Notes: generated from the letters alone by a model not told the origin. Counted from the first letter of the stretch, positions 1 to 64,000 are shown. The stretch is 64,000 nt of DNA from an uncultured Candidatus Saccharibacteria bacterium (GCA_964360035.1 CAYHUJ010000001.1:2176-66175), one strand, 5' to 3'. A program made the numbers and translations.

Positions 1-600
1 AATTACTCTTTTGATTTTGTTACTGACCCAAATGAACAATACCTCGTCCTCGAAAAAAGCTATCTTGGTAAAGATGACTACGCTTTGGTAATTAAAGAAT
101 TAAATACTCTAAAAGATTTATTAGTACTGAACCTTAAAGACGTCCTTCGGCAACACCCCGACGTAATTCCGGGTAGCTTTGGTCTTGGAAGATGGAGCGA
201 TGATGGCAAATATCTTTACGGAGACATTTTCCAAGGCGCGTTAAGTACGGCATACTACGTAATCAAAGCGGAAACATGGAAAGTTGATATTTATGCGGCT
301 CCGTCAGACATTTTAGCAGGGGTGGAAAGGGCGATAAATTTCCAGAATTTGCACCTTGCATATGTAGATATTCCCACATTTACAGGATTTCAAGAAGTAT
401 ACGAACAAATCATCAAAGAAGCTAAACGCGAGGGAAAACTAAAAAATTTATTTGTCTATAATCTCCGTACCAAAGAAAAAATTAAGATTACCTCTGCTGA
501 TCCCGAGTGGAGATTTGATATTAACTGGCTCTCCGACACCGAACTTCAATATGAGTTACCAAGTGGCGAAAAGAAAATCTACAAAATCAATGAAAATTAA
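1..600 (+). CDS. Hypothetical protein, 5-prime end outside the window (reading frame open back to base 1); AT-rich gene
   Basis: The frame of ORF 85..600 has no stop back to position 1. This segment is about 38% GC against about 57% for most of the window. No recognisable motifs. Confidence 0.45.
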   Translation, partial: NYSFDFVTDPNEQYLVLEKSYLGKDDYALVIKELNTLKDLLVLNLKDVLRQHPDVIPGSFGLGRWSDDGKYLYGDIFQGALSTAYYVIKAETWKVDIYAAPSDILAGVERAINFQNLHLAYVDIPTFTGFQEVYEQIIKEAKREGKLKNLFVYNLRTKEKIKITSADPEWRFDINWLSDTELQYELPSGEKKIYKINEN

Positions 601-720
601 ATATATTCATCTAACTATCGCCATTATTGCGCCTCAACTATTTTTGAGCAATTTGGTTTTTGCGCGAATAAACCGATAAGCCATTTACATTTATATTTAT
701 TCAAGATAATTATTAATGTT

Positions 721-748
721 TTAAAAAAATCCCGCCGTCAGCGGCGGG
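721..748 (-). terminator. Rho-independent terminator for the small minus-strand ORF
   Basis: Hairpin CCCGCCG-TCAG-CGGCGGG at 731-748, followed on the minus strand by a T-run (plus-strand AAAAAAAT at 721-730). Confidence 0.4.
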
Positions 749-754
749 AAAAAC

Positions 755-889
755 TCACCCCTTTTTCATTTCCTGAAGCAGGCGGCTGATTTCTTCTTCA
801 ACCGCCGCGGCGACTTCCCGCCTGATTTTTTCCGCTTTCTTTTTTTCCAGCTCTCTTTTTCTCATCAACATCTCGTCCATTTTCGTCAT
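755..889 (-). CDS. Small 44-aa K/E-rich hypothetical protein (MTKMDEMLMRKRELEKKKAEKIRREVAAAVEEEISRLLQEMKKG)
   Basis: Hand-translated from the minus strand. It is preceded on that strand by a strong Shine-Dalgarno-like GGGGGGAGGAAAAC and followed by a hairpin terminator. It is below the 60-aa cutoff of the ORF track. Confidence 0.35.
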   Translation of the reverse strand: MTKMDEMLMRKRELEKKKAEKIRREVAAAVEEEISRLLQEMKKG

Positions 890-956
890 TGTTTTCCTCC
901 CCCCTCGTTCAAATCACGGGTTTTAAAACGCGCGGTTTTCTGTTAAAATAAGACGA

Positions 957-1994
957 ATGAAATACGACATTATTACAATCGGCACGGCGACGCGGGACGT
1001 TTTTTTGACCAGTCCGCTTTTTAAGGTTTTGACCGACGTGGCGCATCTGAAAAAAATCGGTTTTCCGACCGGAGAGGCGCAGTGTTTCGCTTTAGGCGGA
1101 AAAGTGGAAATCGACGCGCCGGTTTTGACGACCGGCGGCGGCGCGACCAACGCGGCGGTTACTTTCGGCCGGCAGGGTTTTAAAGCCGCCTGCCTCGCCA
1201 AAATCGGCGACGACGCGATTGCCGGCGACGTAGAAGCGGAGCTTGTGAAAGAGGGGGTAAAAACGATTCTGAAGCGATCGGCGGCAAAGAGCACCGCTTT
1301 TTCAACGATTCTTCTCGCGCCTTCCGGCGAGCGGACGATTTTGGTTTATCGGGGCGCTTCGGAAGATCTTCAAAAATCGGATTGCGCCGCGCTTCAAAAA
1401 ATCAAAAGCCGCTGGGCTTACTTCGTCCCAGGGGGAATCAAATTTGAAGTTATCGCGGGTTTGGCGGCGAAGCTCCGGCGCGCCGGCGTTCTTTTGGCGA
1501 TCAATCCGTCCAAGCCGTACATCCAAATGGGCGTCAAGAAGTTGAAGCCGCTTTTGGAGAAAATGAGCGTCGTTATTTTAAACCGCGAAGAGGCGGCATA
1601 TCTCGCCGGTTGCGATTACCGCGCCGAAGAAAAAATTTTTAAAGCGATGGACGCGATAGTGGACGGAATCGCGGTTGTTACCGACGGCCCGCGGGGCGTC
1701 AAAGTTTCCGACGGACGCGCGATTTATCAGGCGGGGATTTACAAAGAAAAAATCCTTGCCGACCGGACGGGGGCGGGCGACGCTTTCGGTTCGGGTTTTG
1801 TCGCCGGTTTGATGCGCGCCCGCGACTGCCGTCGGCCGACGGCAAGTGAAATTAAATACGCGATCCGCCTGGCTTCGGCCAACGCTACCGCCGTTGTGGA
1901 GAATATCGGCGCGAAAAAGGGGATTTTGACTCGCGGCGCTTTTGAGAAATCGCCGCATTGGCGCGATTTAAAAATTACCGAAAGGCCGTTATAA
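957..1994 (+). CDS. PfkB-family carbohydrate kinase (ribokinase/fructokinase-like)
   Basis: The GGGATN motif and the C-terminal DRTGAGDAFGSGF motif are the two PfkB signatures. Confidence 0.85.
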   Translation: MKYDIITIGTATRDVFLTSPLFKVLTDVAHLKKIGFPTGEAQCFALGGKVEIDAPVLTTGGGATNAAVTFGRQGFKAACLAKIGDDAIAGDVEAELVKEGVKTILKRSAAKSTAFSTILLAPSGERTILVYRGASEDLQKSDCAALQKIKSRWAYFVPGGIKFEVIAGLAAKLRRAGVLLAINPSKPYIQMGVKKLKPLLEKMSVVILNREEAAYLAGCDYRAEEKIFKAMDAIVDGIAVVTDGPRGVKVSDGRAIYQAGIYKEKILADRTGAGDAFGSGFVAGLMRARDCRRPTASEIKYAIRLASANATAVVENIGAKKGILTRGAFEKSPHWRDLKITERPL

Positions 1995-2004
1995 TATTCA
2001 AACT

Positions 2005-3279
2005 ATGATAAACGACGAAAAAGCGGCGAAGCTGGCGAAGATTCTTCGCGTTGACCAGCGCGCTTTGGCCGAAATAAACGATTTAATGGAAGCCGCGACG
2101 GGAAAAAGCGGCGTTTTGGATGTTGTTTATGATGAAAATGAAACGTTGGCGCAGAAAGCGCTTGATAATTTGGGATTGGGCCGGAAAGTGCCGGCGGTGG
2201 AAGTGTACGACGCCCTGATCAGCAAGATAGAAGCCGACGATCTGGCGATTTTCAACGCGCTGGACCGTCCCGATTTGAACGAACCGGCGGATTGCCAGCG
2301 CGTGATTGACCTTGCCTCTAAAATTACGCCGGTGGGAAAAGGTTTTTTCCTGAAAAGAGAAATCGCCGAACGTTTTATTCTGAACGAGCCGCCGCGAAAA
2401 ATGATGGAATGCCGCGGTTATTCAACGGCTTCCGATCTGGTGGCAAACGAGGACATGCTGGAAGTCTTCGCCGCTTTGCGGATGGTGGAAGACCCCGGCT
2501 GGCTCAATAACGTTTTTTTCAAGCAGTACGAAAATCTCACCCCCGACGATTTTGAAGAGCGCGACATAAACGCGCGGGCGCTCCATAAAGAATGCGCGGT
2601 GATGGCGGAAAAATTCGTCAAGAAAAAATATCACAATATCAGCCACTTGAAAGAGCTGGGTGCCGTTTTCGTCATTCCGGTGGCGCTGGGAATTTCAGGA
2701 GAAATCATCCGCTCGGTTTCGCTCCTGGCGCACTACTTCAACGAGGTGAAGTTTTATTCGAACTTGTTCCGCTATTTCTCGTTAAACCGCAAGACCTTCG
2801 CGCAAAACGTCATTTCGCTCTTGCGGGGCGACGTCATTGAAGAACGCCTGCCGATTTTTCCCAAAGAACTGCGCCGGCCACGCTGGCTGATCGTCCAGCG
2901 CTATCTGGCCAAGGGAGATCCGAACGACTGGCGACTTTTTGAACCGCACGTCAATCCGGAGGCGCTGCACTGGCAGAAAGCGGAGCGGGGGATAAACGAC
3001 ATTGCCGAAGTAATGCCTCATTTTCGCAACGGCTTGGATTTTTGGAAAGAATTGGGATTCGTCGGCGATTTTTTCCAGACCGAAAGCGGCATTCCCGTTT
3101 TGGTGAGCTTCAACCTCGTTGACACGGCGATGTCGCTGGTTAAAGAAAAGGAGTTGTCAAAATATCTTTATCATCACCAGGAGGCGATGTGGAACAGGAT
3201 TTTTACGGAGTTTATGGGCGAAAAGAAAATGGACGAACTTATTCGCGACAACATCATTAAAGGATATTTTGAACTGTAA
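2005..3279 (+). CDS. Hypothetical protein (424 aa), conserved position between a sugar kinase and an aldolase
   Basis: Long ORF with core-genome codon bias and no recognisable catalytic motifs. Confidence 0.6.
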   Translation: MINDEKAAKLAKILRVDQRALAEINDLMEAATGKSGVLDVVYDENETLAQKALDNLGLGRKVPAVEVYDALISKIEADDLAIFNALDRPDLNEPADCQRVIDLASKITPVGKGFFLKREIAERFILNEPPRKMMECRGYSTASDLVANEDMLEVFAALRMVEDPGWLNNVFFKQYENLTPDDFEERDINARALHKECAVMAEKFVKKKYHNISHLKELGAVFVIPVALGISGEIIRSVSLLAHYFNEVKFYSNLFRYFSLNRKTFAQNVISLLRGDVIEERLPIFPKELRRPRWLIVQRYLAKGDPNDWRLFEPHVNPEALHWQKAERGINDIAEVMPHFRNGLDFWKELGFVGDFFQTESGIPVLVSFNLVDTAMSLVKEKELSKYLYHHQEAMWNRIFTEFMGEKKMDELIRDNIIKGYFEL

Positions 3280-7691: not shown

Positions 7692-8008
7692 TTTCCGCGC
7701 GTTTTTTCCGTATCATCGGCGGAAGGGTAAACGTCCCCGTTTTTCTTGATTTGTTCGTCTTCGTAGGGAGCGGCGAAGCGGCGGTAAAATTCCTCCCCGA
7801 TGTTTTTAAAAACGCCGCTGATAAGGGCGATCGCCCAGTAGCGTTTTTCCGGAATAGTTTGAAGCGCGAGCTTCGTACAGGCGTAATTTAACAAGCCGGC
7901 GAACGTTTTTTCGTCCCCCGTTTCTTTCGCCACGGCGTTTATTTCTTCGGCGAGTTTGGCGATGCGCGGATCCAGGCGATTTCGGTTGTTTTGGCTGATG
8001 TAAGGCAT
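7688..8008 (-). CDS. Hypothetical protein (106 aa)
   Basis: ORF with a 4-nt overlap onto ppiB, which suggests an operon. No motif recognised. Confidence 0.5.
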   Translation of the reverse strand: MPYISQNNRNRLDPRIAKLAEEINAVAKETGDEKTFAGLLNYACTKLALQTIPEKRYWAIALISGVFKNIGEEFYRRFAAPYEDEQIKKNGDVYPSADDTEKTRGK

Positions 8009-8091
8009 AATTTACGGAGATAAGTTATCCACAGTCGTTATTTTACTTGAATTTTATTTTTTGGTAAAGTTAAGCGGTTAATAATAAAAAG

Positions 8092-8150
8092 CTCCGCGTG
8101 TGAGGCGCGGGGTTTTTTGTTTTTGGCGGCGGTCGCATTCCGCCGCCGCA
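8092..8150. other. Two GC hairpins immediately left of the REP/RAYT unit (CCGCG-N7-CGCGG plus a T-run; GCGGCGG-N-CCGCCGC)
   Basis: Inverted repeats read directly at 8094-8124 and 8126-8150. No gene ends here on either strand, so they are not an ordinary gene terminator. They may belong to the mobile-element end. Confidence 0.3.
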
Positions 8151-8154
8151 TTCT

Positions 8155-8183
8155 AATCTTCGGACGTCGGACGTCCGAAGATT
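8155..8183. repeat. REP-A: 29-bp palindromic element AATCTTCGGACGTCGGACGTCCGAAGATT
   Basis: Perfect 14-bp arms around a central G. Contains the TCGGACGTCCGA core with an AatII site (GACGTC). Inverted copy of REP-C. Confidence 0.8.
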
Positions 8184-8208
8184 CTTGAATTGTGGTATCA
8201 TTACTTTT

Positions 8209-8898
8209 ATGGAAATTTATCATGTTCTTGACAGGGGAGTTGATAAAAGAAAAATATTTTTAGACAAAGAAGATTATTTTCGTTTTATTCACGATTTATT
8301 TGAATTTAACGATAAAGAAAATGCCGATCTCGCTTCCTATGTCTTTAATAAGCAATATTCGGACGTCCGACGTCCGAATATTGAAATTGGAAGGACTGAT
8401 CGCAAACCGAGGAAATTATTGGTGAAAATACACGCTTTTTGTTTAATGTCGAACCATTACCATTTATTACTTACGCCGGCCGTAGAAAACGGGATCGCTC
8501 TTTTTATGAAAAAAATCAACGGCGGATATGTAAAGTATTTTAATGAAAAATATGAAAGAAAAGGGACCTTATTTGAAGGGAAATATAAAAGAATTATAAT
8601 TAAAAATGAGGCGCATTTTATTCATCTGCCTTATTATATTCATTTAAACCCTCTTGATTTGGCGGCGCCGGAGTGGCGAGAGCGGAAAATTAAAAATTAT
8701 AAAAAAGCGATAAATTTTTTGGAATCTTATCGTTGGAGTAGTTACCTTGACTACATCGGCAAGAAAAACTTTCCGTCCGTTACCCAAAGAGAGTTTTTGA
8801 TGAATTTCTTTGAAAGTCCTAAACAATACAAAGAAAATATGATAAAGTATTTAGAGGAATTAGGTTTAGAAGAAATTAAAGATGTTTATTTGGAATAA
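8209..8898 (+). CDS. REP-associated tyrosine transposase (RAYT) / IS200-like Y1 HuH transposase
   Basis: N-terminal YHV.DRGVDKRKIFLDKEDY, the HuH motif SNHYHLLL, and the catalytic-Tyr region RKGTLFEGKYKRII. The ATG at 8209 (MEIYHV...) fits the family N-terminus better than the TTG at 8185. Confidence 0.75.
   Translation: MEIYHVLDRGVDKRKIFLDKEDYFRFIHDLFEFNDKENADLASYVFNKQYSDVRRPNIEIGRTDRKPRKLLVKIHAFCLMSNHYHLLLTPAVENGIALFMKKINGGYVKYFNEKYERKGTLFEGKYKRIIIKNEAHFIHLPYYIHLNPLDLAAPEWRERKIKNYKKAINFLESYRWSSYLDYIGKKNFPSVTQREFLMNFFESPKQYKENMIKYLEELGLEEIKDVYLE
8354..8382. repeat. REP-B: AATATTCGGACGTCCGACGTCCGAATATT, in-frame inside the RAYT gene (encodes YSDVRRPNI)
   Basis: Perfect 14-bp arms. Same core as REP-A/C but the flanks are AATATT instead of AATCTT. 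Confidence 0.8.
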
Positions 8899-11560
8899 AA
8901 GCAAAATAAATCTTCGAATGTTCAATCTTCGGACGTCCGACGTCCGAAGATTGGGGGTGGTGGTTGTTGCGACGCTTGTTTTTATTTTTTATTCCGGCGA
9001 AGTTTCCGCCGCTACGCGTACTTGGGACGGCGGGGGAGCCGATAACAACTGGTCAACGGACGCCAACTGGTCTGGTGATCGGGCCCCGTCTCTCAACGAC
9101 GATGTAGTCTTTGACGGCACTTCGGTGAAGAATTCGGCAATGGACAGCGGGTTGACAATCCTAAGCTTCAATGCCAGCTCCACTTACACCGGAGCGTTGA
9201 GTATCGCCAATGGAAACACCTTGACGGTAACCGGCAACTGGACATATAACGCCGCCAATTTTGACGCCGGCACATCCACGATAAAATTTACCGGCAACAC
9301 TGCTACTTTCACTCCCGGCGCTGTCAATTACTATAATCTTGAAGTGGCAAAACCTAGCAGTGGCTCCGACCTCAATATTTCCGGCACCGCCACCACTACC
9401 AATGATTTAATTATCAGCGCCGCCAACGATGACACCAATAACATCAACACCGGCACCGTCAATGTGGGCCGCAACGTCAGCATTACCAACGCTAATTTCG
9501 GAGGCGGCACGGCAACGGTGAACATGAACGGCTCCGGCAGTCAAAGCGTTTCGTCAAGCGGCGGCTGGCTACCTAATTTTTCCGTGAACAAGTCAGCCGG
9601 CACTCTTAGTTTGATTGGTACTGTTGTAATCGGAGGAAACTACACTCACACCGCCGGCACCGTTGACGCCGGCACTTCCACCCTGAAGTTTGTTGGCGGT
9701 ACCACTACTTTCACTCCCGGCGCTGTCAATTACTATAATCTTGAAGTGGCAAAACCTAGCAGTGGCTCCGACCTCAATATTTCCGGCACCGCCACCACTA
9801 CCAATGATTTAATTATCAGCGCCGCCAACGATGACACCAATAACATCAACACCGGCACCGTCAATGTGGGCCGCAACGTCAGCATTACCAACGCTAATTT
9901 CGGAGGCGGCACGGCAACGGTGAACATGAACGGCTCCGGCAGTCAAAGCGTTTCGTCAAGCGGCGGCTGGCTACCTAATTTTTCCGTGAACAAGTCAGCT
10001 GGCTCCACCACTATTGATAGCAATGTACGGGTGGGCGGGACATTGACGGTTACCGCCGGCGAGCTGCGCCACAACGCTTATACTCTACAAATTGACGGCG
10101 GAACGACGATTTCCTCCGGCGGAACGTTTTCCGATTACGCGACCGCTTCCAGCACGATTAAATTCGGTTCCACGATCACGAACAATGGAACGTTAATTTT
10201 GAACGGCGGAGGAACAAGTTGCGGCGACTTTGACTATGTTCTATTGCGTTCCACCGCCGACGGCACCCAGCGTTCCTGGTCCGGTTCCGGAACCTTCAAC
10301 ATCCAGGATGCCGACCTGAAAGACATGGGAGCAACCAGTGGTACCGTAACAGTTCGCAGCGGCACGAACTCCGGCAATAACGGCGGTTCGTGGACTTTCA
10401 ACTCCAACTGTCTTCCTTCCGCTTCCTTTGACAACGATTTTTCTTCCTGGAGCTCCGGCAACGCTACCGTCAATTACAAACTGATTGACCCCAATTCCGA
10501 CGCGTCCAATATCTCTCAAACGGCCGATTCAGGGATGGAATATTCCGCCGACGGCTCAACTTATTCGGACGCGACGCAGGGAACGGGAGGGGATGGAATG
10601 ACCAGCCTTTCTTCATCCGCCTCGCCCGGAACGTCTCATTCTTTCGCCTGGGCCAGCGCAACCGACCTGCCGAACACTGAAGATCTAACCGTCTATCTGC
10701 GCATTCGTCCCAATGACGGCAGTGAAAACGCTTCCGACTGGGCGACCTCCTCCGCTTTCGCGATTGACAACGTCGCCCCATCTTCCGTCGGCGCCCCGAC
10801 TTTCGGAACAATCACCTCTTCTTCCGTTGAAATCGTCAAGCCGACAGCTGTTACGGAAAACGGCTCCGGCCTCAATACCTGGCAGGCGAGAAGAGATTCG
10901 GCAACTGTCCTTTCCGCCGTCGCCACCACCACGGCTTCCGTCTCCGATTCTTCTTTGTCGGCGAATACCCAATATGCCTATGACGTCCGGTTCGCCGATT
11001 ACGCCGCCAACGCTTCCGCTTACGGGACGTCCGCTTCCAAATACACCCTAGCTCCGACTCCGGCTAATCTGGCCGCCGTCGCGGCAAGAATTTCCATCAC
11101 TCTTTCCGTTGACCAATTCACCAACGATACCGCCGGCTCGTCCGGATACTACTTCGTCAATTCCACCGCCTCCACCACCTCCGGCTGGATCCAGGCGAAC
11201 TTCTGGACCGACACCGGCTTGACCTGCGGCGTTTCCTATTCTTACACGGTCAAACACAGAAACGGCGACGGAACGGAAACGTCAACCGTTTCTCTTGACG
11301 CTTCAGCGTCCGCCTGCCAGTCGGAAACGGCCGCCCGGGTGTCTTACGCGATATCCCCGCTGAGAATTTACGACGCGCCAAAGCCGGAGAAAGTTTTGCC
11401 TATTCCCGCTTCGGAAGTTTATCGGGACAAAGCGACGCGGATCGCCGAGCTGCAAACGCAAATCCGGCAGCTGCAAGCGCGACTTCTGGATCTTTACCGC
11501 TTCCTGCTTCAGGCGTTGATTAAAGAGCTGGAGGAAAGATCGGGACGTATAAATTTTTGA
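8882..11560 (+). CDS. Large secreted surface protein/adhesin: signal peptide, autotransporter-associated beta-strand (PATR-like) motif, tandem beta-rich repeats, FN3-like domains, C-terminal coiled coil
   Basis: MFNLRTSDVRRLGVVVVATLVFIFYSGEVSAA looks like a signal peptide. TRTWDGGGADNNWSTDANWSGDRAPSLNDDVVFDG matches the PATR consensus. T/S/G/N-rich repeats are followed by FN3-like segments. Alternative start ATG at 8918. Confidence 0.7.
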   Translation: MFIWNKSKINLRMFNLRTSDVRRLGVVVVATLVFIFYSGEVSAATRTWDGGGADNNWSTDANWSGDRAPSLNDDVVFDGTSVKNSAMDSGLTILSFNASSTYTGALSIANGNTLTVTGNWTYNAANFDAGTSTIKFTGNTATFTPGAVNYYNLEVAKPSSGSDLNISGTATTTNDLIISAANDDTNNINTGTVNVGRNVSITNANFGGGTATVNMNGSGSQSVSSSGGWLPNFSVNKSAGTLSLIGTVVIGGNYTHTAGTVDAGTSTLKFVGGTTTFTPGAVNYYNLEVAKPSSGSDLNISGTATTTNDLIISAANDDTNNINTGTVNVGRNVSITNANFGGGTATVNMNGSGSQSVSSSGGWLPNFSVNKSAGSTTIDSNVRVGGTLTVTAGELRHNAYTLQIDGGTTISSGGTFSDYATASSTIKFGSTITNNGTLILNGGGTSCGDFDYVLLRSTADGTQRSWSGSGTFNIQDADLKDMGATSGTVTVRSGTNSGNNGGSWTFNSNCLPSASFDNDFSSWSSGNATVNYKLIDPNSDASNISQTADSGMEYSADGSTYSDATQGTGGDGMTSLSSSASPGTSHSFAWASATDLPNTEDLTVYLRIRPNDGSENASDWATSSAFAIDNVAPSSVGAPTFGTITSSSVEIVKPTAVTENGSGLNTWQARRDSATVLSAVATTTASVSDSSLSANTQYAYDVRFADYAANASAYGTSASKYTLAPTPANLAAVAARISITLSVDQFTNDTAGSSGYYFVNSTASTTSGWIQANFWTDTGLTCGVSYSYTVKHRNGDGTETSTVSLDASASACQSETAARVSYAISPLRIYDAPKPEKVLPIPASEVYRDKATRIAELQTQIRQLQARLLDLYRFLLQALIKELEERSGRINF
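8924..8952. repeat. REP-C: AATCTTCGGACGTCCGACGTCCGAAGATT, inside the 5-prime end of the surface-protein ORF (encodes NLRTSDVRRL)
   Basis: Exact reverse complement of REP-A. Confidence 0.8.
9262..10065. repeat. Tandem duplication with a 402-bp period; cores 9303-9597 and 9705-9999 are identical (295 bp)
   Basis: The identical 64-aa antisense ORFs at 9331..9525 and 9733..9927 in the ORF track are offset by 402 nt. The protein repeats a roughly 134-aa unit. Confidence 0.85.
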
Positions 11561-57647: not shown

Positions 57648-57915
57648 AAATTTAAATTTTGATTAATTTCAGACGCGCAACGGCAGGATGGAGCCGCCGG
57701 TTTCAAAATAAACAAAAGACGGGCCTTTTACGATTATTATAGCAAAACCCGTTTTAACTTCAAATCCACATCCCGGTCCAAACGCATAGGCGTAAAACCT
57801 TATGTGTCTGGATTAGGGATGCTCCGCCGACGCCGTTCCCCCGCTGATATCATACGATTGCTTAATTTTTGAGCGGGCCGCCAGGCGAAGTTGAAACAGG
57901 CCCGGTTTGAATTTG

Positions 57916-57986
57916 AGCGGGATACGAGAATTGAACTCGCGTCTGTTGCTTGGGAAGCAACCGTACTGCCACCGTACGAATCCCGC
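57916..57986 (-). tRNA. tRNA-Gly (anticodon CCC)
   Basis: Folded by hand. Acceptor GCGGGAT/ATCCCGC. D arm GTAC-GGTGGCA-GTAC. Anticodon arm GTTGC-TTCCCAA-GCAAC. T arm GCGAG-TTCAATT-CTCGT. U73 discriminator as expected for Gly. No encoded CCA. Confidence 0.8.
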
Positions 57987-58028
57987 TCCAGTAATAAAAC
58001 CAAGTCAGTTTTCCCAAAATTTTTACGA

Positions 58029-58083
58029 GCAAAGCGGAGCTTTGCGGCGGCTGGCGGCGGGATTTTAGATGGCTTGCGGGGGG
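58029..58083. repeat. IR-L: left 55-56-bp inverted repeat (GCAAAGCGGAGCTTTGCGGCGGCTGGCGGCGGGATTTTAGATGGCTTGCGGGGGG)
   Basis: Its reverse complement occurs at 60070-60125 with one mismatch. Confidence 0.85.
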
Positions 58084-58091
58084 AAATTTCC

Positions 58092-58122
58092 TTGAACAAT
58101 CTTTATCTTGGTATGGTATAAT
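58092..58122 (+). promoter_or_regulatory. Sigma-70-like promoter just inside IR-L (TTGAAC -35; extended -10 TGGTATAAT)
   Basis: Motifs read from the sequence. The spacing is about 19 nt, slightly long. Confidence 0.4.
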
Positions 58123-58148
58123 GTATATGTAATCAATAAGTTGCTTTT

Positions 58149-59501
58149 ATGGAATCAACTACTTCATTTCTAATCGTCGCGCTTGGTTATCTTGCCTTTG
58201 GCATAGCGACGGTAATTTGGATAACCAAAAAGAAAAAGGCGGGCGAGAAGATTTCTTTGCTGGCAAAGATTATCATCGCCATGGTTGTTCTTTCCAGTTC
58301 TTCCGCTCTTCTTTCTGTAATTATTGAGCCGTCTCCGGAGCAGGAGACAAACGCTCCCGAAACCAGCACTCTTTACGTAAAAGAGGGAGGCGCGAATGTC
58401 CGCGAATGTCCTTCAACTTCGTGCAAAGTGATTAGCACGCTTCCCCAGAACGCGTGGTTCACGTTTTCGGGCGATTCTTACGACAAATATCCCAATTGGG
58501 CCGAAGTTACCCTTCTGGACGGGCGGGGCGGCTATGTGAGCAAAAGCACGCTTTCTTTTGAAGTATCCGAAGTGCCGCAGCCGCAAGAAAATGGAATCAG
58601 ATTGGCAAAATGGAACTTTGATCCGTTGGAAATCGACGGTTCGTATGGCATTTCGTTTTGCATTCCGGATTCAGCACGCTCCGGAGCAACCTGCGGCGGC
58701 CTTGCCGGAGACACCCAAACCCCGATCGGCGGTTCCCCGCCATATTCGTTCGTCAAAAGCTCCGGCTTTCTGCCGCCTGGAATGTCGCTTGAGCTGAACG
58801 GCCTGCTTTCGGGTTCGCCGACAACCGAAGGCACTTATAATTTTAAACTTTGCGCCAAGGATTTATCAATGAACCAGGGGTGCGAGAATTACACGCTGGT
58901 GGTGAAAAAAGAAGATTCAATTGCTCAACCTTCCTCTGGCGGAAATTATAAAGCAGTTTTGTCGTTTACTGCCGATATGCAAAATTATCAACGCAATAAC
59001 GATTCGCTGCTCGCTAATAACGAACATGTATCCGTGACAGTTACGGCTAGTAGATCAGAACAAGATGAACAGGGTAGTAAAAGTATCAGCAGTTATAATT
59101 TTTCTTCTACTGGACGAAGCAGTATTTACGTAAGTAGTAATTGTATATCGCAGTATAGCGGGACTTTTGGCGATAATTTGGACTCCGGACCAGGAGCCAT
59201 ATACGGTTATCTGCCTTCCCGTCCACTTATATTCAAAGCAAGAACAGGATACGCCGGGGATTATAGGGATTTTGATTATACGCCATTATCAGCAGATTTT
59301 TGTGCGACTTGGCCTCCGGATGTGTTCATAAGAGAGGTTTTGTCGGACATTATATCCGGCACAGGAGGGGGCATTGCCCTAGATCAACGCAGCTTGAATC
59401 CGGCAGGAGAAACTATTTCTTTTAGCAACGATTATCGTCCCGAACATTTAGCTACAGACAGAATTACTTATAACGGCACGCTGGTATTTACGAAAGAGTA
59501 A
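58149..59501 (+). CDS. Membrane-anchored surface protein with a bacterial SH3 (SH3b) domain and a putative Ig (dystroglycan/cadherin-like) domain
   Basis: Two N-terminal TM segments. SH3b-like LYVKEGGANVRECPSTSCKVISTLPQNAWFTF...YVSKSTL. PPYSF...LPPGMSL...GSPTTEGTYNF matches the putative Ig domain pattern. GC is lower than the core genome. Confidence 0.6.
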   Translation: MESTTSFLIVALGYLAFGIATVIWITKKKKAGEKISLLAKIIIAMVVLSSSSALLSVIIEPSPEQETNAPETSTLYVKEGGANVRECPSTSCKVISTLPQNAWFTFSGDSYDKYPNWAEVTLLDGRGGYVSKSTLSFEVSEVPQPQENGIRLAKWNFDPLEIDGSYGISFCIPDSARSGATCGGLAGDTQTPIGGSPPYSFVKSSGFLPPGMSLELNGLLSGSPTTEGTYNFKLCAKDLSMNQGCENYTLVVKKEDSIAQPSSGGNYKAVLSFTADMQNYQRNNDSLLANNEHVSVTVTASRSEQDEQGSKSISSYNFSSTGRSSIYVSSNCISQYSGTFGDNLDSGPGAIYGYLPSRPLIFKARTGYAGDYRDFDYTPLSADFCATWPPDVFIREVLSDIISGTGGGIALDQRSLNPAGETISFSNDYRPEHLATDRITYNGTLVFTKE

Positions 59502-59516
59502 CTCGTTTATCAGGGG

Positions 59517-59912
59517 ATGAAACTTCTCGATAAAAAATGGAAATGGGCGGCGGCGGTAATTTTGCTGCCGGTGGTTGTTATATTGATCGGGATCTACGTA
59601 TATTTTTTTTGGACCTGTTGCCCGGAGCCGGCAACTGAACGTTTAAGAGCTTCGTGTCAAGTGGAAGGAGGATTTTTTGTTGAAGAGTTGGAACAATGCC
59701 AACTGCCGGCATCGGACGCGGGGAAAACATGCAAAGATTCATCCGAATGCGAGGGTTTCTGCGAAGCGGATCTGTCCCCGGATGAAATATCAAAAATAAC
59801 CAACGGGGAACGAGTGGAAAAAACGGGCGCCTGCGGGCGGTGGAAAAACTTTTTTGCGGGATGTTTTTATATAATAGAAGACAGCGCGGTTGAGAGATTT
59901 TGCGCTGACTAA
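59517..59912 (+). CDS. Small membrane-anchored Cys-rich (10 Cys) protein
   Basis: TM segment, then a CC...C...C..C...C.C...C...C pattern suggesting a disulfide-rich ectodomain. Confidence 0.5.
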   Translation: MKLLDKKWKWAAAVILLPVVVILIGIYVYFFWTCCPEPATERLRASCQVEGGFFVEELEQCQLPASDAGKTCKDSSECEGFCEADLSPDEISKITNGERVEKTGACGRWKNFFAGCFYIIEDSAVERFCAD

Positions 59913-59924
59913 CGCCGAATTAAT

Positions 59925-60053
59925 ATGAAGAAACTTTATCTCATTTTAAAAATTCTGCTCATTCTGGCGGCTTTAATCGCGCTGGGCTATTTACTTACTC
60001 CCACCGACAGTGAAGTCATTTTGAAAAGGCCATGGCTTGAAAAGGCCGAATAG
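59925..60053 (+). CDS. Possible 42-aa hydrophobic peptide (MKKLYLILKILLILAALIALGYLLTPTDSEVILKRPWLEKAE)
   Basis: Hand-translated; below the ORF-track cutoff; immediately inside IR-R. Confidence 0.25.
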   Translation: MKKLYLILKILLILAALIALGYLLTPTDSEVILKRPWLEKAE

Positions 60054-60069
60054 TGTGAAAGGGGTTTTC

Positions 60070-60125
60070 CCCCCCGCAAGCCGTCTAAAATCCCGCCGCC
60101 AGCCGCCGCAAAGCTCCGCTTTGCC
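60070..60125. repeat. IR-R: right inverted repeat, reverse complement of IR-L (55/56 identical)
   Basis: Direct comparison of the two sequences. Confidence 0.85.
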
Positions 60126-60275
60126 CATTGTCCCAAGCCAATTCCGCTCGCTTCGCTCGTTTTTAGAGTGAGGTTCAAAAATTCAAAAGCCGAAGATTTT
60201 AAGGTACAACACTTGCCCCACCATCCCGTGCGCGTGTTAAAAACTTTTGCCGTCTTGAAAGACCGGCAAACCCCC

Positions 60276-63200
60276 TTATTTCCCGCGGCCAAGATTATTC
60301 CAATCTTTTTTCTTAAGGAGTTCAAGAACGGGTGCATCTTTCTTGTCTTTAGGAATAATAGGCATGGTCTCATCGTTTATACCTGCCATATCCAAATCGT
60401 TCGGACCTATTTCCCACGCCTCTCTATCGTTAAAGGATGTTTTAACAATACCTACATCAAACAGAACTCTGGGCTGGGGTTGGGTCCCATCAATGATTGC
60501 TGGTGCCAGTAAATAAATACCAAATCTTTTAAAGCTTGCTGAAAACATATCAAGATTTGTTGTGGCATCGGGGGTCAGGGTATGCACTCTCGACACAGTA
60601 ATAAGACGCTGATTCTTTGGCGGTCTTTTTGTAAGGTCAAGATTTGTAGTAACAACTGCACGATACCAAGCAGGATTTTTTTCTGAAACTCCTCGTATCA
60701 TCGAAATTCTAATCGTCTCATCCGCATCTTTTTCGCCAAATATACCTCTCCAATCCTTAAATATCGCTCTGGCTTTTTCTTCGTTTTTAAACAAGAAGGC
60801 CATTACAGGCGGACGGCTAGGTATTGTGATGTAAAGCACACCGCCCCAGCCCGCTTCGTCCCATAGATGTTGGCGGATTACCGAGACATTCTTAATTTCG
60901 TCATGCCGCTTTGGAGTACCAGAAGATTTTTCCTCACTTTCTTCTTTTTTAAATTCTTTGGTTTTAACAGGCTTTCCACTTTTTTCAGGGGTGTATGGAT
61001 ATAAAGTTGCCTCAGGATTTATCCAGTTAAGGATAGATCTTTTAGGGTTATACCCCAAGACATTTCCCAAAGTAACCATTGGCGTAGAGAAACTGAAGGC
61101 CCTAGAATTAACTTCCTCGTCTTTAAAAAGTTTGAGCAAATCAACGTCAGCATCTTTGAAAAGGACAGTGTTTGCAATCAGGTGCAATACAATCTCCGAG
61201 ATTTTAGAGGAAATTTTTTCCTGTTGCTCTTTTGAAAGAGAGTGAGGACTAAAAGAACCACAGGTAATAGCTATGCCGAATTTACCGTCTTTTTGAATCT
61301 CATATATTATTTCTTCCTTTAGTGATTCATCGCGTGTGATCGTGATATAGGCACTGCTGTCTCTTGAGGCGGCATCCATTTCCAAAGTGGTAGACAAAAA
61401 GCTCTCAAGAGCCGCGAGAACATACTCGCCGATTTCGATTTCGGGGCTACCGTTGGGTGCTTTGATAATATATTCGCATCCTAGAACGCTTGACCTTAAT
61501 TCCACTACTTCACCAATATAGTATTCTGGCGCGCTTGGCAGATTTTCTTGAGCAGGTTGGGAAAGATATGAATTGAAAAATTCATCAACTTCATCGGGAG
61601 GCATCTTTTCCTTAAAAGAATCTGGAACCATGTCTTTTCCACCAAGACGGTATAGCAAGCCAAAGGCGGCAAAATCTAGGTCCATCTGCATTAACGTATC
61701 GGGTAGTTTCTCTAATATTTTCAATTGCTCGTCAAGTGTTTTGATTACCAGCAGCCCCATAAGCGAACCAAAGAAAAGATCATCATTCAGTAGTTTTGAT
61801 TTTTGTTCATCTGTTTTTAAAAGTTGAGCAGAGAGAAGATGGTGAAGCTGATGCCACTCAAGTGCGTATCCTATTCGGCCTAATTGGACCTCAATAGTTC
61901 TCAATCTTTTGTAGCAAGCGAGCTGCATTGTGTTGATTTTGCTATACACCCAAAAATCACTTGTTGCATGGGAGGCGGCATTCAACAGTACGCCGCGAGC
62001 AGCCCAAAGTAGGCCAGCATCTTCATAGGCAAATGAAAGAGTGAATAGCGCATGAACTAGCTGGTCCTTGCTCTCTTTTTTGTAAAAACGCCTTAGCGCT
62101 CTACCGAGAAAATCTATAGCCTTGTAAGTTCTCCTGCCTTTTAAATGTTGGATTCCACGATTAAGGAGTATTTCACCTGCCGCAAGTTCTCCTTCTCTGT
62201 TCGTCACCACCTCAACCAGATGCTCTTGAAGTTCTTCGTAAGCGCTTTCACCATTGAATACGTCATCCATTTCATTCAAGAGCCGGAAGGTTATTTCAAA
62301 GGGGAAACCGATAAGGTTGCTGGCCTTATCCATCACATCTTTAAGTTGCCGAAATGCTTTTGCTACTTCTGCAGGGTCATCTCTTTTGCGTAAAAGATTC
62401 GCAAAACAGAGCATGGCTTCTGCGTGTACCGATGCACTGGAATTAGCCTTATTACTTTTATGGGTTTCCAGTTTTTCAAAAAGATTTTTTGTTTTTTCCT
62501 CAAGCATTTCAGGCGACACCAAGTTAGATGTGCCAGCAAGAGCGGACAGAAGACCCCAAAGATTATTCAGCCTTTCGGCGGAAAATATGTTATTTGAGGC
62601 AAGTGCAAGTTTTTCTATGGCATCGTACTGCTTTAAAAAGGCATTAAAATCTTCAAACCAAAAGAACGTGGTCCATGCTCGTTGATATAAAGCGGTGAAC
62701 TGTTGGTCGCTAGTGCCGTGCTCATTAGCAAATCGTATTGCACGATCAAATAAAGATTCGACATCCTGACGCGGCTCATCAAGCTCCGCAGCTATTAACG
62801 CCGCGTCTAAGCACTCGTCAACGGTTTTTATCGTGACACTGGACTTACTTACGTCTTCTGCGATAGAGGAATTTAATTCATCGAACTGCTTTTTTCTTTG
62901 TGAATCCAAGGGACCGGCTTCTTTTTTTTCCTCAAGCCCATCTCCCATTTTTAATTCTTCAATAGCAAGCTTCTGCCTTTTATTTGCAAAAACCTTATCA
63001 AGAATCCAATTCCTATCAAGGACAACAACCTGAAAGCTGTATTTTTTAGACAATTCGTCCTCCAGAGTTGCTCTTGTTTTGTCCCTCGCAAATTCACTCG
63101 TTATACAAAAGACTTTTGCGTAAGACCTGCCTGTTTTATGTATTTCTTCGGTGTCGCTTCTAATTTTTCCTGACCAATCTTTTTGAGTGCTAAAAGCAAA

Positions 63201-63524
63201 GGCAAAATCTTCCTTGCTTTGATTGTCCTGACCTTGGAAAAAAGCACTTCGTATTTGAGAAGCGACAGGGATTGTAGATGAGTCAACTTTGCTATCGCCG
63301 CCGCCCGTAGAGCCAGTTTGAGGTCGAAGGTTGGGGCAAATCTCGTATTGACAAAGCTTCCGCGCGAATTCTTCAAAATCCTGCTCCTGTTTTCTTTGCC
63401 CCAAGGTATCTAAGTGATACTCAAGGGTCGTACGGTTTAGTTTGCTCTCCGTTACTATTTTTGAATCAGAAAACCTGTGAGGTTTTCTTTTTTTCATAAA
63501 ATCTTTTGGGGACGGAATACTCAT
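60276..63524 (-). CDS. Large (1082 aa) protein: N-terminal Mrr-type PD-(D/E)xK restriction-endonuclease catalytic domain plus a roughly 880-aa helical region of unknown function; no Walker A motif
   Basis: N-terminal DFEEFARKLCQYE...GSTGGGDSKVD...FAFSTQKDWSGKIRSD...AKVFCITSEFARDK...QVVVLDRNWIL follows the Mrr_cat consensus as I recall it (FEe..a.ll..lGy.....g.sgDgGiD..., vQcKr, ifvTtssFs.eA). About 40% GC. The start codon abuts the stop of the upstream HEPN gene. Confidence 0.7.
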   Translation of the reverse strand: MSIPSPKDFMKKRKPHRFSDSKIVTESKLNRTTLEYHLDTLGQRKQEQDFEEFARKLCQYEICPNLRPQTGSTGGGDSKVDSSTIPVASQIRSAFFQGQDNQSKEDFAFAFSTQKDWSGKIRSDTEEIHKTGRSYAKVFCITSEFARDKTRATLEDELSKKYSFQVVVLDRNWILDKVFANKRQKLAIEELKMGDGLEEKKEAGPLDSQRKKQFDELNSSIAEDVSKSSVTIKTVDECLDAALIAAELDEPRQDVESLFDRAIRFANEHGTSDQQFTALYQRAWTTFFWFEDFNAFLKQYDAIEKLALASNNIFSAERLNNLWGLLSALAGTSNLVSPEMLEEKTKNLFEKLETHKSNKANSSASVHAEAMLCFANLLRKRDDPAEVAKAFRQLKDVMDKASNLIGFPFEITFRLLNEMDDVFNGESAYEELQEHLVEVVTNREGELAAGEILLNRGIQHLKGRRTYKAIDFLGRALRRFYKKESKDQLVHALFTLSFAYEDAGLLWAARGVLLNAASHATSDFWVYSKINTMQLACYKRLRTIEVQLGRIGYALEWHQLHHLLSAQLLKTDEQKSKLLNDDLFFGSLMGLLVIKTLDEQLKILEKLPDTLMQMDLDFAAFGLLYRLGGKDMVPDSFKEKMPPDEVDEFFNSYLSQPAQENLPSAPEYYIGEVVELRSSVLGCEYIIKAPNGSPEIEIGEYVLAALESFLSTTLEMDAASRDSSAYITITRDESLKEEIIYEIQKDGKFGIAITCGSFSPHSLSKEQQEKISSKISEIVLHLIANTVLFKDADVDLLKLFKDEEVNSRAFSFSTPMVTLGNVLGYNPKRSILNWINPEATLYPYTPEKSGKPVKTKEFKKEESEEKSSGTPKRHDEIKNVSVIRQHLWDEAGWGGVLYITIPSRPPVMAFLFKNEEKARAIFKDWRGIFGEKDADETIRISMIRGVSEKNPAWYRAVVTTNLDLTKRPPKNQRLITVSRVHTLTPDATTNLDMFSASFKRFGIYLLAPAIIDGTQPQPRVLFDVGIVKTSFNDREAWEIGPNDLDMAGINDETMPIIPKDKKDAPVLELLKKKDWNNLGRGK

Positions 63525-63525
63525 A

Positions 63526-64000
63526 TTATTTTTTCTTCAATTTTTGAAGTTCTTTATATGCTTCATAATATCGTTTACATTCCTCTTGAGGATCCGTTAT
63601 CCTTCGGTGAAAAAATTTTGTTAGCTCTTGTCTTGTTGCCCAAGCATCAAAAAATACTTGCGCGAAACTGTCAGCATCTCTAAAAGGATTCCGGCCCTTA
63701 TATCGTATCTTTTCAACATTATTTTGATGTGCGACTTGATTTCTCAAATCGGATAGCGGCTTTATGCTGGCAATATCATATGGCCAATTTTTAAGTATAG
63801 GCCATAAAATTTTGTACATATTACCAAAACTTAATTCCTCAACCATTTTTTCTAAATCGGCAAAAACTTTTTTATCATCATCTTCTTTGCCGGTTTCAAA
63901 AACTATCGGTTTGAAATAGTGATAAAAAATCTGACGAAACAAAATCTCTATCCCAGCGTGAATATCAAAAATTACCGACCTAACAAAATGATCATCGTCC
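63526..64000 (-). CDS. Abi_2 (AbiD/AbiF)-like protein with a HEPN Rx4H motif (LRNQVAH); 5-prime end outside the window
   Basis: The frame stays open to the window edge (the ORF-track start is a TTG). PLSDLRNQVAHQNN matches the RNxxAH HEPN signature of Abi-like proteins. Its stop lies 2 nt from the start of the 1082-aa gene. Confidence 0.55.
   Translation of the reverse strand, partial: DDDHFVRSVIFDIHAGIEILFRQIFYHYFKPIVFETGKEDDDKKVFADLEKMVEELSFGNMYKILWPILKNWPYDIASIKPLSDLRNQVAHQNNVEKIRYKGRNPFRDADSFAQVFFDAWATRQELTKFFHRRITDPQEECKRYYEAYKELQKLKKK

Follow-up and report, generated by a model that had tools for sequence, protein, structure and literature searches.

The locus described here raises the question of whether two abutting minus-strand genes in a low-GC (guanine-cytosine) region make up one anti-phage system and, if they do not, what each of them might do. 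They lie within positions 57987-64000 of a 64,000-nt stretch (GCA_964360035.1 CAYHUJ010000001.1:2176-66175, hereafter the window) from an uncultured Candidatus Saccharibacteria bacterium: one encodes a 1082-aa protein with a nuclease-like N-terminal domain, and the other, cut by the window edge, a 188-aa HEPN-like protein. A preliminary description of this DNA had joined them into a two-gene HEPN + Mrr-nuclease defence module. The best explanation is instead that 57987-64000 shows one portion of an accessory island, at least 10.9 kb long, which a groundwater member of the Patescibacteria acquired horizontally, and that this island would be a mosaic of three independent modules: (i) an inverted-repeat-flanked cassette with two envelope proteins; (ii) the self-contained 1082-aa gene; (iii) the tail of a restriction-modification (R-M)-type operon, with a HTH controller, an EcoRI-like N6A methylase, a DUF262(GmrSD_N)/HNH protein and the HEPN-like gene in last place. 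In this explanation, to which as a whole we give somewhat better than an even chance, the large protein would be a single-protein sensor-effector and the HEPN-like protein an RNase attached to the R-M genes.

The large protein and its nuclease-like domain

The large protein is laid out as follows:

60276-63524, minus strand: 1082-aa protein with a predicted Mrr-like nuclease domain, a TPR array and alpha/beta C-terminal domains (open reading frame (ORF), 305 homologues, AlphaFold2 model)
62916-63524, minus strand: N-terminal domain, residues 1-203, predicted restriction-endonuclease (Mrr-like PD-(D/E)xK) fold, better conserved than any other part of the protein
63282-63305, minus strand: signature loop G74-G-G-D77-S-K79-V-D81 (109-sequence alignment)
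61542-62912, minus strand: all-helical TPR-like array, residues 205-661
60279-61532, minus strand: two alpha/beta C-terminal domains, residues ~665-835 and 875-1062

The 1082-aa protein belongs to a fixed-architecture single-gene family. Its 305 homologues, found down to 35% identity and nearly all full length (1050-1166 aa) among those listed, are all annotated as hypothetical and lack any Pfam domain, save for a SEC-C tail in two. A search with the N-terminal domain (N-domain) of 1.84 billion cluster representatives retrieved 735 clusters (50% identity), of which 396 reached E <= 1e-30. The best 150 of these 735 matches always had the domain near the N-terminus, in proteins of ~1070-1130 aa or in fragments, so the architecture looks fixed and effector swapping is without evidence.

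The AlphaFold2 model, based on a 109-sequence alignment, had a predicted local distance difference test score (pLDDT) of 89.7 and a predicted template modelling score of 0.85. It consists of an alpha/beta N-domain, unbroken helical repeats without any strand from residue 205 to 661, and two alpha/beta domains joined by a linker of variable sequence and low model confidence. The huge helical C-terminus described earlier is thereby confirmed for residues 205-661, which are all-helical and TPR-like, but residues 665-1082 form the two alpha/beta domains instead. The absence of an NTPase motif was borne out: the window protein has no Walker A motif or P-loop, the Walker A pattern occurs in nine of the 109 relatives as an unconserved chance match, and 205-661 is purely helical in the model. 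Searches of Pfam, NCBIfam, PADLOC, PHROGs and PDB sequences with the single sequence, 22 members, the 109-sequence profile or the N-domain-only profile gave no match. Among the structural matches listed, no solved structure resembled the whole protein or its C-terminal domains. A dual-nuclease arrangement of the Upx kind is not supported either, in that hhalign comparisons of the N-domain with each C-terminal domain, and of the C-terminal domains with each other, revealed no internal duplication.

In the predicted structure, the N-domain has the alpha-beta-beta-beta-alpha-beta core fold of restriction endonucleases. Its structural matches, with their scores, were:

AF1548, 11.4; AspBHI, 10.5; LlaBIII, 10.2; Avs4, 9.8
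FokI, 9.3; MspJI, 8.7; Can2, 8.3; HamA, 6.9

The earlier assignment to an Mrr-type nuclease is right at the level of fold, whereas every sequence-profile test of it fails: the window protein does not match Mrr_cat (PF04471) even at E <= 1, nor do any of 22 diverse members at E <= 0.05, and the N-domain profile matched no nuclease among the PDB sequences. Of all 30-residue stretches in the protein, 61-90 is the most conserved; it includes the invariant P64, T70 and G71. Within the signature loop, G75, G76, D77, K79 and D81 are invariant in the 109 aligned sequences and G74 is present in 108; S112, K120 and D124 are invariant as well. Residues 70-93 are the sole part of the N-domain that AlphaFold2 cannot place. 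The model hints that they could form a mobile catalytic or regulatory loop, ordered by metal, substrate or partner.

When each GTDB species was represented by one genome, relatives of the large gene turned up in 299 species, distributed over many bacterial phyla and one archaeon (Methanobacteriaceae). They include six or more Patescibacteria lineages, Ignavibacteria, Bacteroidota, Acidobacteriota, Nitrospirota, Chloroflexota, Bacillota, Cyanobacteriota, Planctomycetota, Verrucomicrobiota, Gemmatimonadota (Longimicrobium, Gemmatimonadaceae), Alpha-, Beta- and Gammaproteobacteria, and Desulfobacterota. Full-length copies, all annotated as hypothetical protein, were also found on 12 plasmids, of which 10 are classed as conjugative or mobilizable. 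A weak match came from one metagenomic 'phage' contig without annotation. On the inspected plasmids the gene is monocistronic, with no same-strand gene nearer than ~70 nt and an upstream spacer usually exceeding 200 nt.

Neighbours of the large gene on plasmids included Hachiman (DUF1837 + helicase), AbiEii/DUF6088, a NACHT protein, an integrase, an S8 peptidase/AAA pair, parAB, a relaxase, insertion sequence (IS) elements, and a SMEK-domain protein, which we take to be defence-associated. The big neighbours in chromosomal loci included HmaB/HmaC, Avs2, a TIR protein, an MkoC-like protein (Mokosh) and GajB/DRT-like helicases. R-M genes, too, are among the defence genes met near the large gene. 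The large gene stands directly 5' of the Hachiman pair (DUF1837 + DEAD/DEAH helicase) on Sphingobium plasmid 3pYBL2-3 (L124), and directly 5' of HmaB/HmaC-like genes in a member of Verrucomicrobiae (L018). Both adjacencies are single cases without conserved linkage. For 80 loci taken with 10-kb flanks, neighbours within four genes of the large gene were clustered, and no family occurred in more than four of the 80; 126 neighbours carried 155 Pfam families. Among four long contigs chosen blind to neighbours, one had a defence-like context (SLFN_AlbA_2, JetD_C, Mrr_cat, HNH_5, RHS). In these examples the association with defence and mobile genes is therefore frequent but not universal.

Partial matches on Pantoea, Ensifer and Rhizobium plasmids were considered as alternative architectures; those of Pantoea and Ensifer turned out to be a truncated and an IS-disrupted remnant. 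The copy on Pantoea pPAT9B02 (L115) is N-terminally truncated to 837 aa, that on Ensifer pD (L116) is a C-terminal remnant beside an ISNCY transposase, and a further copy (L056) is split into 987 aa and 205 aa. Such decay indicates that the large gene is dispensable and turns over.

Readings of the large protein

The large protein would most likely work like proteins of the Avs/Upx kind, with sensor and effector in one polypeptide but no NTPase. A ligand, probably a phage protein, would be bound by the TPR array together with the two alpha/beta domains at the C-terminus, and these parts would also hold the N-terminal nuclease off. Ligand binding, possibly together with oligomerisation, would release DNA cleavage, so that phage DNA would be destroyed or the infection aborted. 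That the protein cuts DNA, what it binds and that it serves in defence are inferred. The proposal of an undescribed anti-phage system made for this locus could consequently be kept in part: the pair is not a unit, yet the large protein alone, which no curated model matches, remains a plausible stand-alone anti-phage protein and a candidate for an undescribed Avs/Upx-like sensor-nuclease. A literature search found no described Mrr-TPR system lacking an NTPase. That the protein founds an undescribed class, made up of single-protein, NTPase-independent immune sensors in which a GGGDxKxD-loop nuclease is controlled by TPR and novel alpha/beta domains and which spread by horizontal transfer, is a tentative proposal and somewhat more apt to fail than to hold.

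Several observations weigh against this explanation. The large protein has no match to any curated defence model in PADLOC, its C-terminal domains resemble no solved structure among the matches listed, and three of the four long contigs chosen blind to neighbours show a metabolic or housekeeping context. Conservation is fairly even along the protein (mean column identity 48%), which makes it less variable than typical fast-evolving phage sensors. In the N-domain, S112-x-K stands at the (D/E)xK position of beta-3, and only 77% of members have the Lys. Residues 70-93 (~63246-63317) fall below pLDDT 50 in both models despite their peak conservation, so the equivalence of active-site residues is not readable from the model. 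Residue 83 (63276-63278) is Ser in the window protein and Glu in 104 of the 109 relatives. The HEPN assignment of the 188-aa protein, in turn, draws on sub-threshold profile matches.

The alternative that survives best places the large protein outside defence, in a role on mobile elements such as plasmid or island maintenance, inter-element competition, a toxin function or DNA processing. The gene adjoins parAB on two inspected plasmids and a relaxase, integrase or IS on several, three of the four unbiased chromosomal contexts lack defence genes, and decayed copies occur on plasmids. Nevertheless, genes for replication, partition or transfer are not consistently linked to it, the majority of the copies found lie on chromosomes, and a nuclease effector combined with a repeat sensor is an architecture typical of immune proteins. 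We regard such a role as rather unlikely.

Next in rank, and unlikely too, is a restriction-type enzyme of innate specificity, for example modification-dependent like Mrr, MspJI and AspBHI, in which the target of the TPR and C-terminal domains would be DNA or a cellular partner instead of a phage protein. Among the top structural matches of the N-domain are two type IV enzymes, AspBHI and MspJI, and a type ISP enzyme, LlaBIII, which would agree with this, as would the even conservation, expected where the target is invariant. However, no DNA-binding domain (SRA, wHTH etc.) appeared in any profile search, TPR arrays usually bind proteins or peptides, and neither a translocase nor a methylase is associated with the large gene.

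The nuclease-like domain could also be catalytically dead and the protein a scaffold or regulator. This fits with S-x-K/Q in place of the canonical ExK, with E83S in the window protein, with a conserved loop that is not confidently modelled in active-site geometry, and with the lack of a sequence-level match to Mrr_cat. On the other hand, the strongest conservation of the protein falls on an acidic/Lys cluster (E47, D77, K79, D81, E83, K120, D124), and S-x-K enzymes can be active: restriction enzymes such as Cfr10I and NgoMIV include active S-x-K variants, in which the acidic residue comes from the following helix. We regard a dead domain as improbable. If Glu83 is catalytic, the clade with Ser83, a residue common to only four sequences, may have altered activity.

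The small gene, its operon and the rest of the island

The small gene enters the window as follows:

63526-64000, minus strand: C-terminal 157 codons of the 188-aa HEPN-like protein (frame open to the window edge; full length from contig L001)
63727-63744, minus strand: R117-N-Q-V-A-H122, Rx4H HEPN-type motif, conserved in family alignments

One nucleotide separates the stop codon of the small gene from the ATG of the 1082-aa ORF on the minus strand (TAA T ATG), and the arrangement is the same in four independent assemblies of one population. The junction, from which a translationally coupled pair had been read, is thus real, but the adjacency is seen at the present locus only. A hidden Markov model of the small family, built from 36+ sequences, matched only in the four assemblies of this locus and gave no match across the 80 other large-gene loci. 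Two large-gene relatives, L090 (84% identity; preceded by RadC, HNH_2 and tiny ORFs) and L005 (79% identity), are both without the small gene. Conversely, the large gene was present in none of ~23 other small-gene loci (nine contigs and 17 metagenome loci examined), where, L094 and L098 apart, the small gene follows type I HsdR, lies near resolvases or integrases, or stands beside ordinary genes. The neighbourhood test, with the pair in 0/80 loci of one gene and none of ~23 of the other, refutes the two-gene HEPN + Mrr module by the condition that the preliminary description itself had named, lack of synteny in other genomes. Since synteny is shared in neither direction, the 1-nt junction is explained as the chance abutment of two modules rather than a conserved operon. 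Judged from gene order, the HEPN-like and large genes are separate modules juxtaposed in a compact Patescibacteria genome. That the 188-aa HEPN and 1082-aa Mrr-type proteins form one translationally coupled abortive-infection system, as the shared strand, the 1-nt gap, the identical arrangement in four assemblies and the nuclease-type domains of both might suggest, is very improbable given that the pairing was seen only here (0/80 and none of ~23 elsewhere) and that each gene has other partners in its nearest relatives. As a general lesson, the fact that two nuclease-like genes lie close together in a compact genome does not count as evidence of a system.

The family of the small protein comprises about 75 clusters. 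In alignments of 36 and 44 sequences, R117 and H122 never vary, while conservation of N118 and A121 is at least 90%. For the protein of this locus, the Pfam matches HEPN_RiboL-PSP (E 0.015; 15.6 bits, cut-off 28.4) and Abi_2 (E 0.025) are both sub-threshold. Across the family, sub-threshold matches were obtained to HEPN_RiboL-PSP in 26/36 members (best E 6.7e-5), to Abi_2 in 22/36 and to HEPN_Swt1 in four, and one relative has a precomputed PF18735 match. A broadened family profile found a sole match in the PDB, Csm6 (6tug, E 0.009), whose HEPN region aligns with the segment that holds Rx4H. The 188-aa protein is, on these sequence comparisons, quite probably a HEPN protein. The RNQVAH motif attributed earlier to an Abi_2-like HEPN protein is present and conserved, although the Abi_2 and HEPN profile matches themselves all stay below threshold. 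Three relatives (P0149, P0152, P0332) are labelled 'DNA-directed RNA polymerase subunit F' by JGI, a label without profile support and probably an annotation artefact.

The 1082-aa protein is encoded identically on several Hainich groundwater metagenome contigs (ENA ERZ1292616-22), the longest of 68.8 kb. Two of these assemblies match the window at 100% identity, the others at 99.9%. In NCBI both proteins are recorded as hypothetical, under a metagenome-assembled genome of a 'Patescibacteria group bacterium'. Contig L001 continues past position 64000 and places four same-strand genes (62-3147 of the contig) before the large gene: (1) a 67-aa HTH_3 protein; (2) an EcoRI-type adenine (N6A) methylase (E 1.8e-118); (3) a GmrSD_N(DUF262) + HNH protein (E 2e-20 and 8e-6); (4) the complete 188-aa small protein. 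The contig ends past the HTH_3 operon, and the island size given above is hence a lower bound. The same-strand order methylase, DUF262/HNH, small gene occurs in L001, L094 and L098, with partner E values of 1e-151 to 1e-221. This link is facultative, and most of the more distant small-gene loci are without it. The operon resembles an R-M-type cassette under C-protein control, in which the nuclease is an unusual DUF262/HNH protein and a HEPN gene has been added.

The features at the other side of the island are these:

57915-57986, minus strand: tRNA-Gly(CCC) (ARAGORN; Rfam tRNA, 58 bits)
58029-58086: left inverted-repeat arm, 58 nt (repeat search, 97% complementary)
58093-58122, plus strand: sigma-70-like promoter candidate (TGAACA, 18-nt spacer, TATAAT, TG-extended -10; 10/12 consensus matches)
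58149-59501, plus strand: 450-aa protein with N-terminal hydrophobic segment (Pfam SH3_3 E 3.5e-9, He_PIG (Ig-like) E 3.6e-8)
59517-59912, plus strand: 131-aa Cys-rich protein with N-terminal hydrophobic helix (ORF list)
60067-60124: right inverted-repeat arm, 58 nt (repeat search, 97% complementary)

The island begins directly at the 5' end of tRNA-Gly(CCC), which was called by both ARAGORN and Rfam where it had been noted; the Rfam scan of the region found no non-coding RNA besides it. The GC content of 57987-64000 is 42.9%, while the mean is 50.2% for positions 1-57914, 49.6% for the whole window and 50.4 +/- 2.4% for background 2-kb windows. A low-GC island beside this tRNA was thus correctly recognised, but against a background of 50.2% and not ~57%. 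By part, the inverted-repeat cassette has 46.7% GC, the large gene 41.7% and the partial small gene 33.5%. The drop is significant, with z-scores sinking from -1.8 to -4.4 towards the window edge, and the strand-symmetric tetranucleotide distance reaches a z of up to 8.3. At third codon positions, the two genes on the minus strand of the island have a GC of 0.38 and 0.27, against 0.53-0.58 in the flanking housekeeping genes. Integration of the classical kind, at the 3' end of a tRNA, was considered and ruled out, as the island meets the 5' end and no integrase is found up to the contig end. Elsewhere in the window, a second low-GC stretch (8001-10000; 44.2% vs ~50%; ORFs 8185-8898 and 8882-11560) overlaps the start of an 892-aa ORF and may be another acquired segment.

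The inverted-repeat arms occur as two copies only within the window, with none expected by chance. The bounded cassette and its two genes are present as described before, but the arms are 58 nt long, not 56 bp. Both genes said to encode surface proteins lie between the arms, and the 450-aa protein, with its SH3_3 and He_PIG domains, is by its predicted features likely an envelope or surface protein; the 131-aa protein had nothing significant in Pfam, NCBIfam or PHROGs. For the claim that the cassette has its own promoter, an extended -10, sigma-70-like site does sit just 5' of the 450-aa ORF, but it is a consensus match only, and sigma-70-like sites in the region are no commoner than in shuffled sequence. 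Folding of the arms was not better than that of shuffled sequence (z -0.01), and an exact search for them in JGI metagenomes found no match. An independent assembly (L004, 6550 nt) stops at window position 60123, where the right arm has its outer edge, which points to a break of the assembly graph at the repeat. Within the population the cassette may be able to invert or may vary; no recombinase is visible.

Significance and comparison with known systems

If the large protein is a defence gene, an unannotated family of about 700 clusters (50% identity) with a confidently predicted structure would join the few NTPase-less sensor-nucleases, for which Upx is the precedent. Patescibacteria, or the candidate phyla radiation, have tiny genomes and few known defences, and the protein would then be a candidate protein-level immune receptor for this group. 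Avs-like pattern recognition could also, if so, work without the STAND ATPase switch, and the large protein offers a test of whether a TPR sensor gates a nuclease without ATP-driven oligomerisation. Candidates of this sort are numerous, but this family is clean, widespread and easy to test.

Abi2/Swt1-type HEPN genes occur inside R-M operons and are linked to ParB(DUF262)-HNH nucleases, and a PrrC-like back-up RNase role has been proposed for R-M-linked HEPN genes (Anantharaman et al. 2013, PMC3710099). The HEPN-like protein of this island might likewise be an RNase forming a 'second line' attached to the R-M-type cassette. It resembles the Abi2/Swt1/RiboL-PSP-type proteins (PMC3710099) in its invariant Rx4H and in following a methylase and a DUF262(ParB-like)/HNH gene. 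It differs from them (PMC3710099) in that its family stays below gathering thresholds and is without its own model, and many members are without R-M genes.

For the large protein, the type IV enzymes Mrr, MspJI and AspBHI, together with AF1548 (PDB 1y88), are a close comparison in fold. Compared with these, it has S-x-K instead of Q/E-x-K and no Mrr_cat match, is far bigger, carries TPR and C-terminal modules, and lacks a modified-DNA-binding domain. With Avs proteins that have an Mrr-like N-terminal effector (Avs4, PDB 8dgf) it shares an N-terminal effector and a C-terminal repeat (TPR) sensor in one polypeptide. However, it has no central STAND NTPase and is therefore not an Avs; nor does it match a PADLOC Avs model or have sequence similarity, and it possesses two extra alpha/beta C-terminal domains.

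Upx is an NTPase-less defence protein that combines a sensor with a PD-(D/E)xK domain and senses phage terminase (PMC13601566, PMC13099982). Like Upx (Gao et al. 2020; PMC13601566, PMC13099982), the large protein is a single, large (~1100-1200 aa), NTPase-less polypeptide with a predicted PD-(D/E)xK nuclease and a big unannotated sensor, and both are scattered widely in bacteria and archaea. The domain order is reversed, as the PD-(D/E)xK domain of Upx is C-terminal, and there is no homology by PADLOC model or structure 9wuf; the large protein is consequently not Upx. As modelled, it represents an unannotated, structurally well-predicted and horizontally mobile family, an architectural variant of the sensor-nuclease theme.

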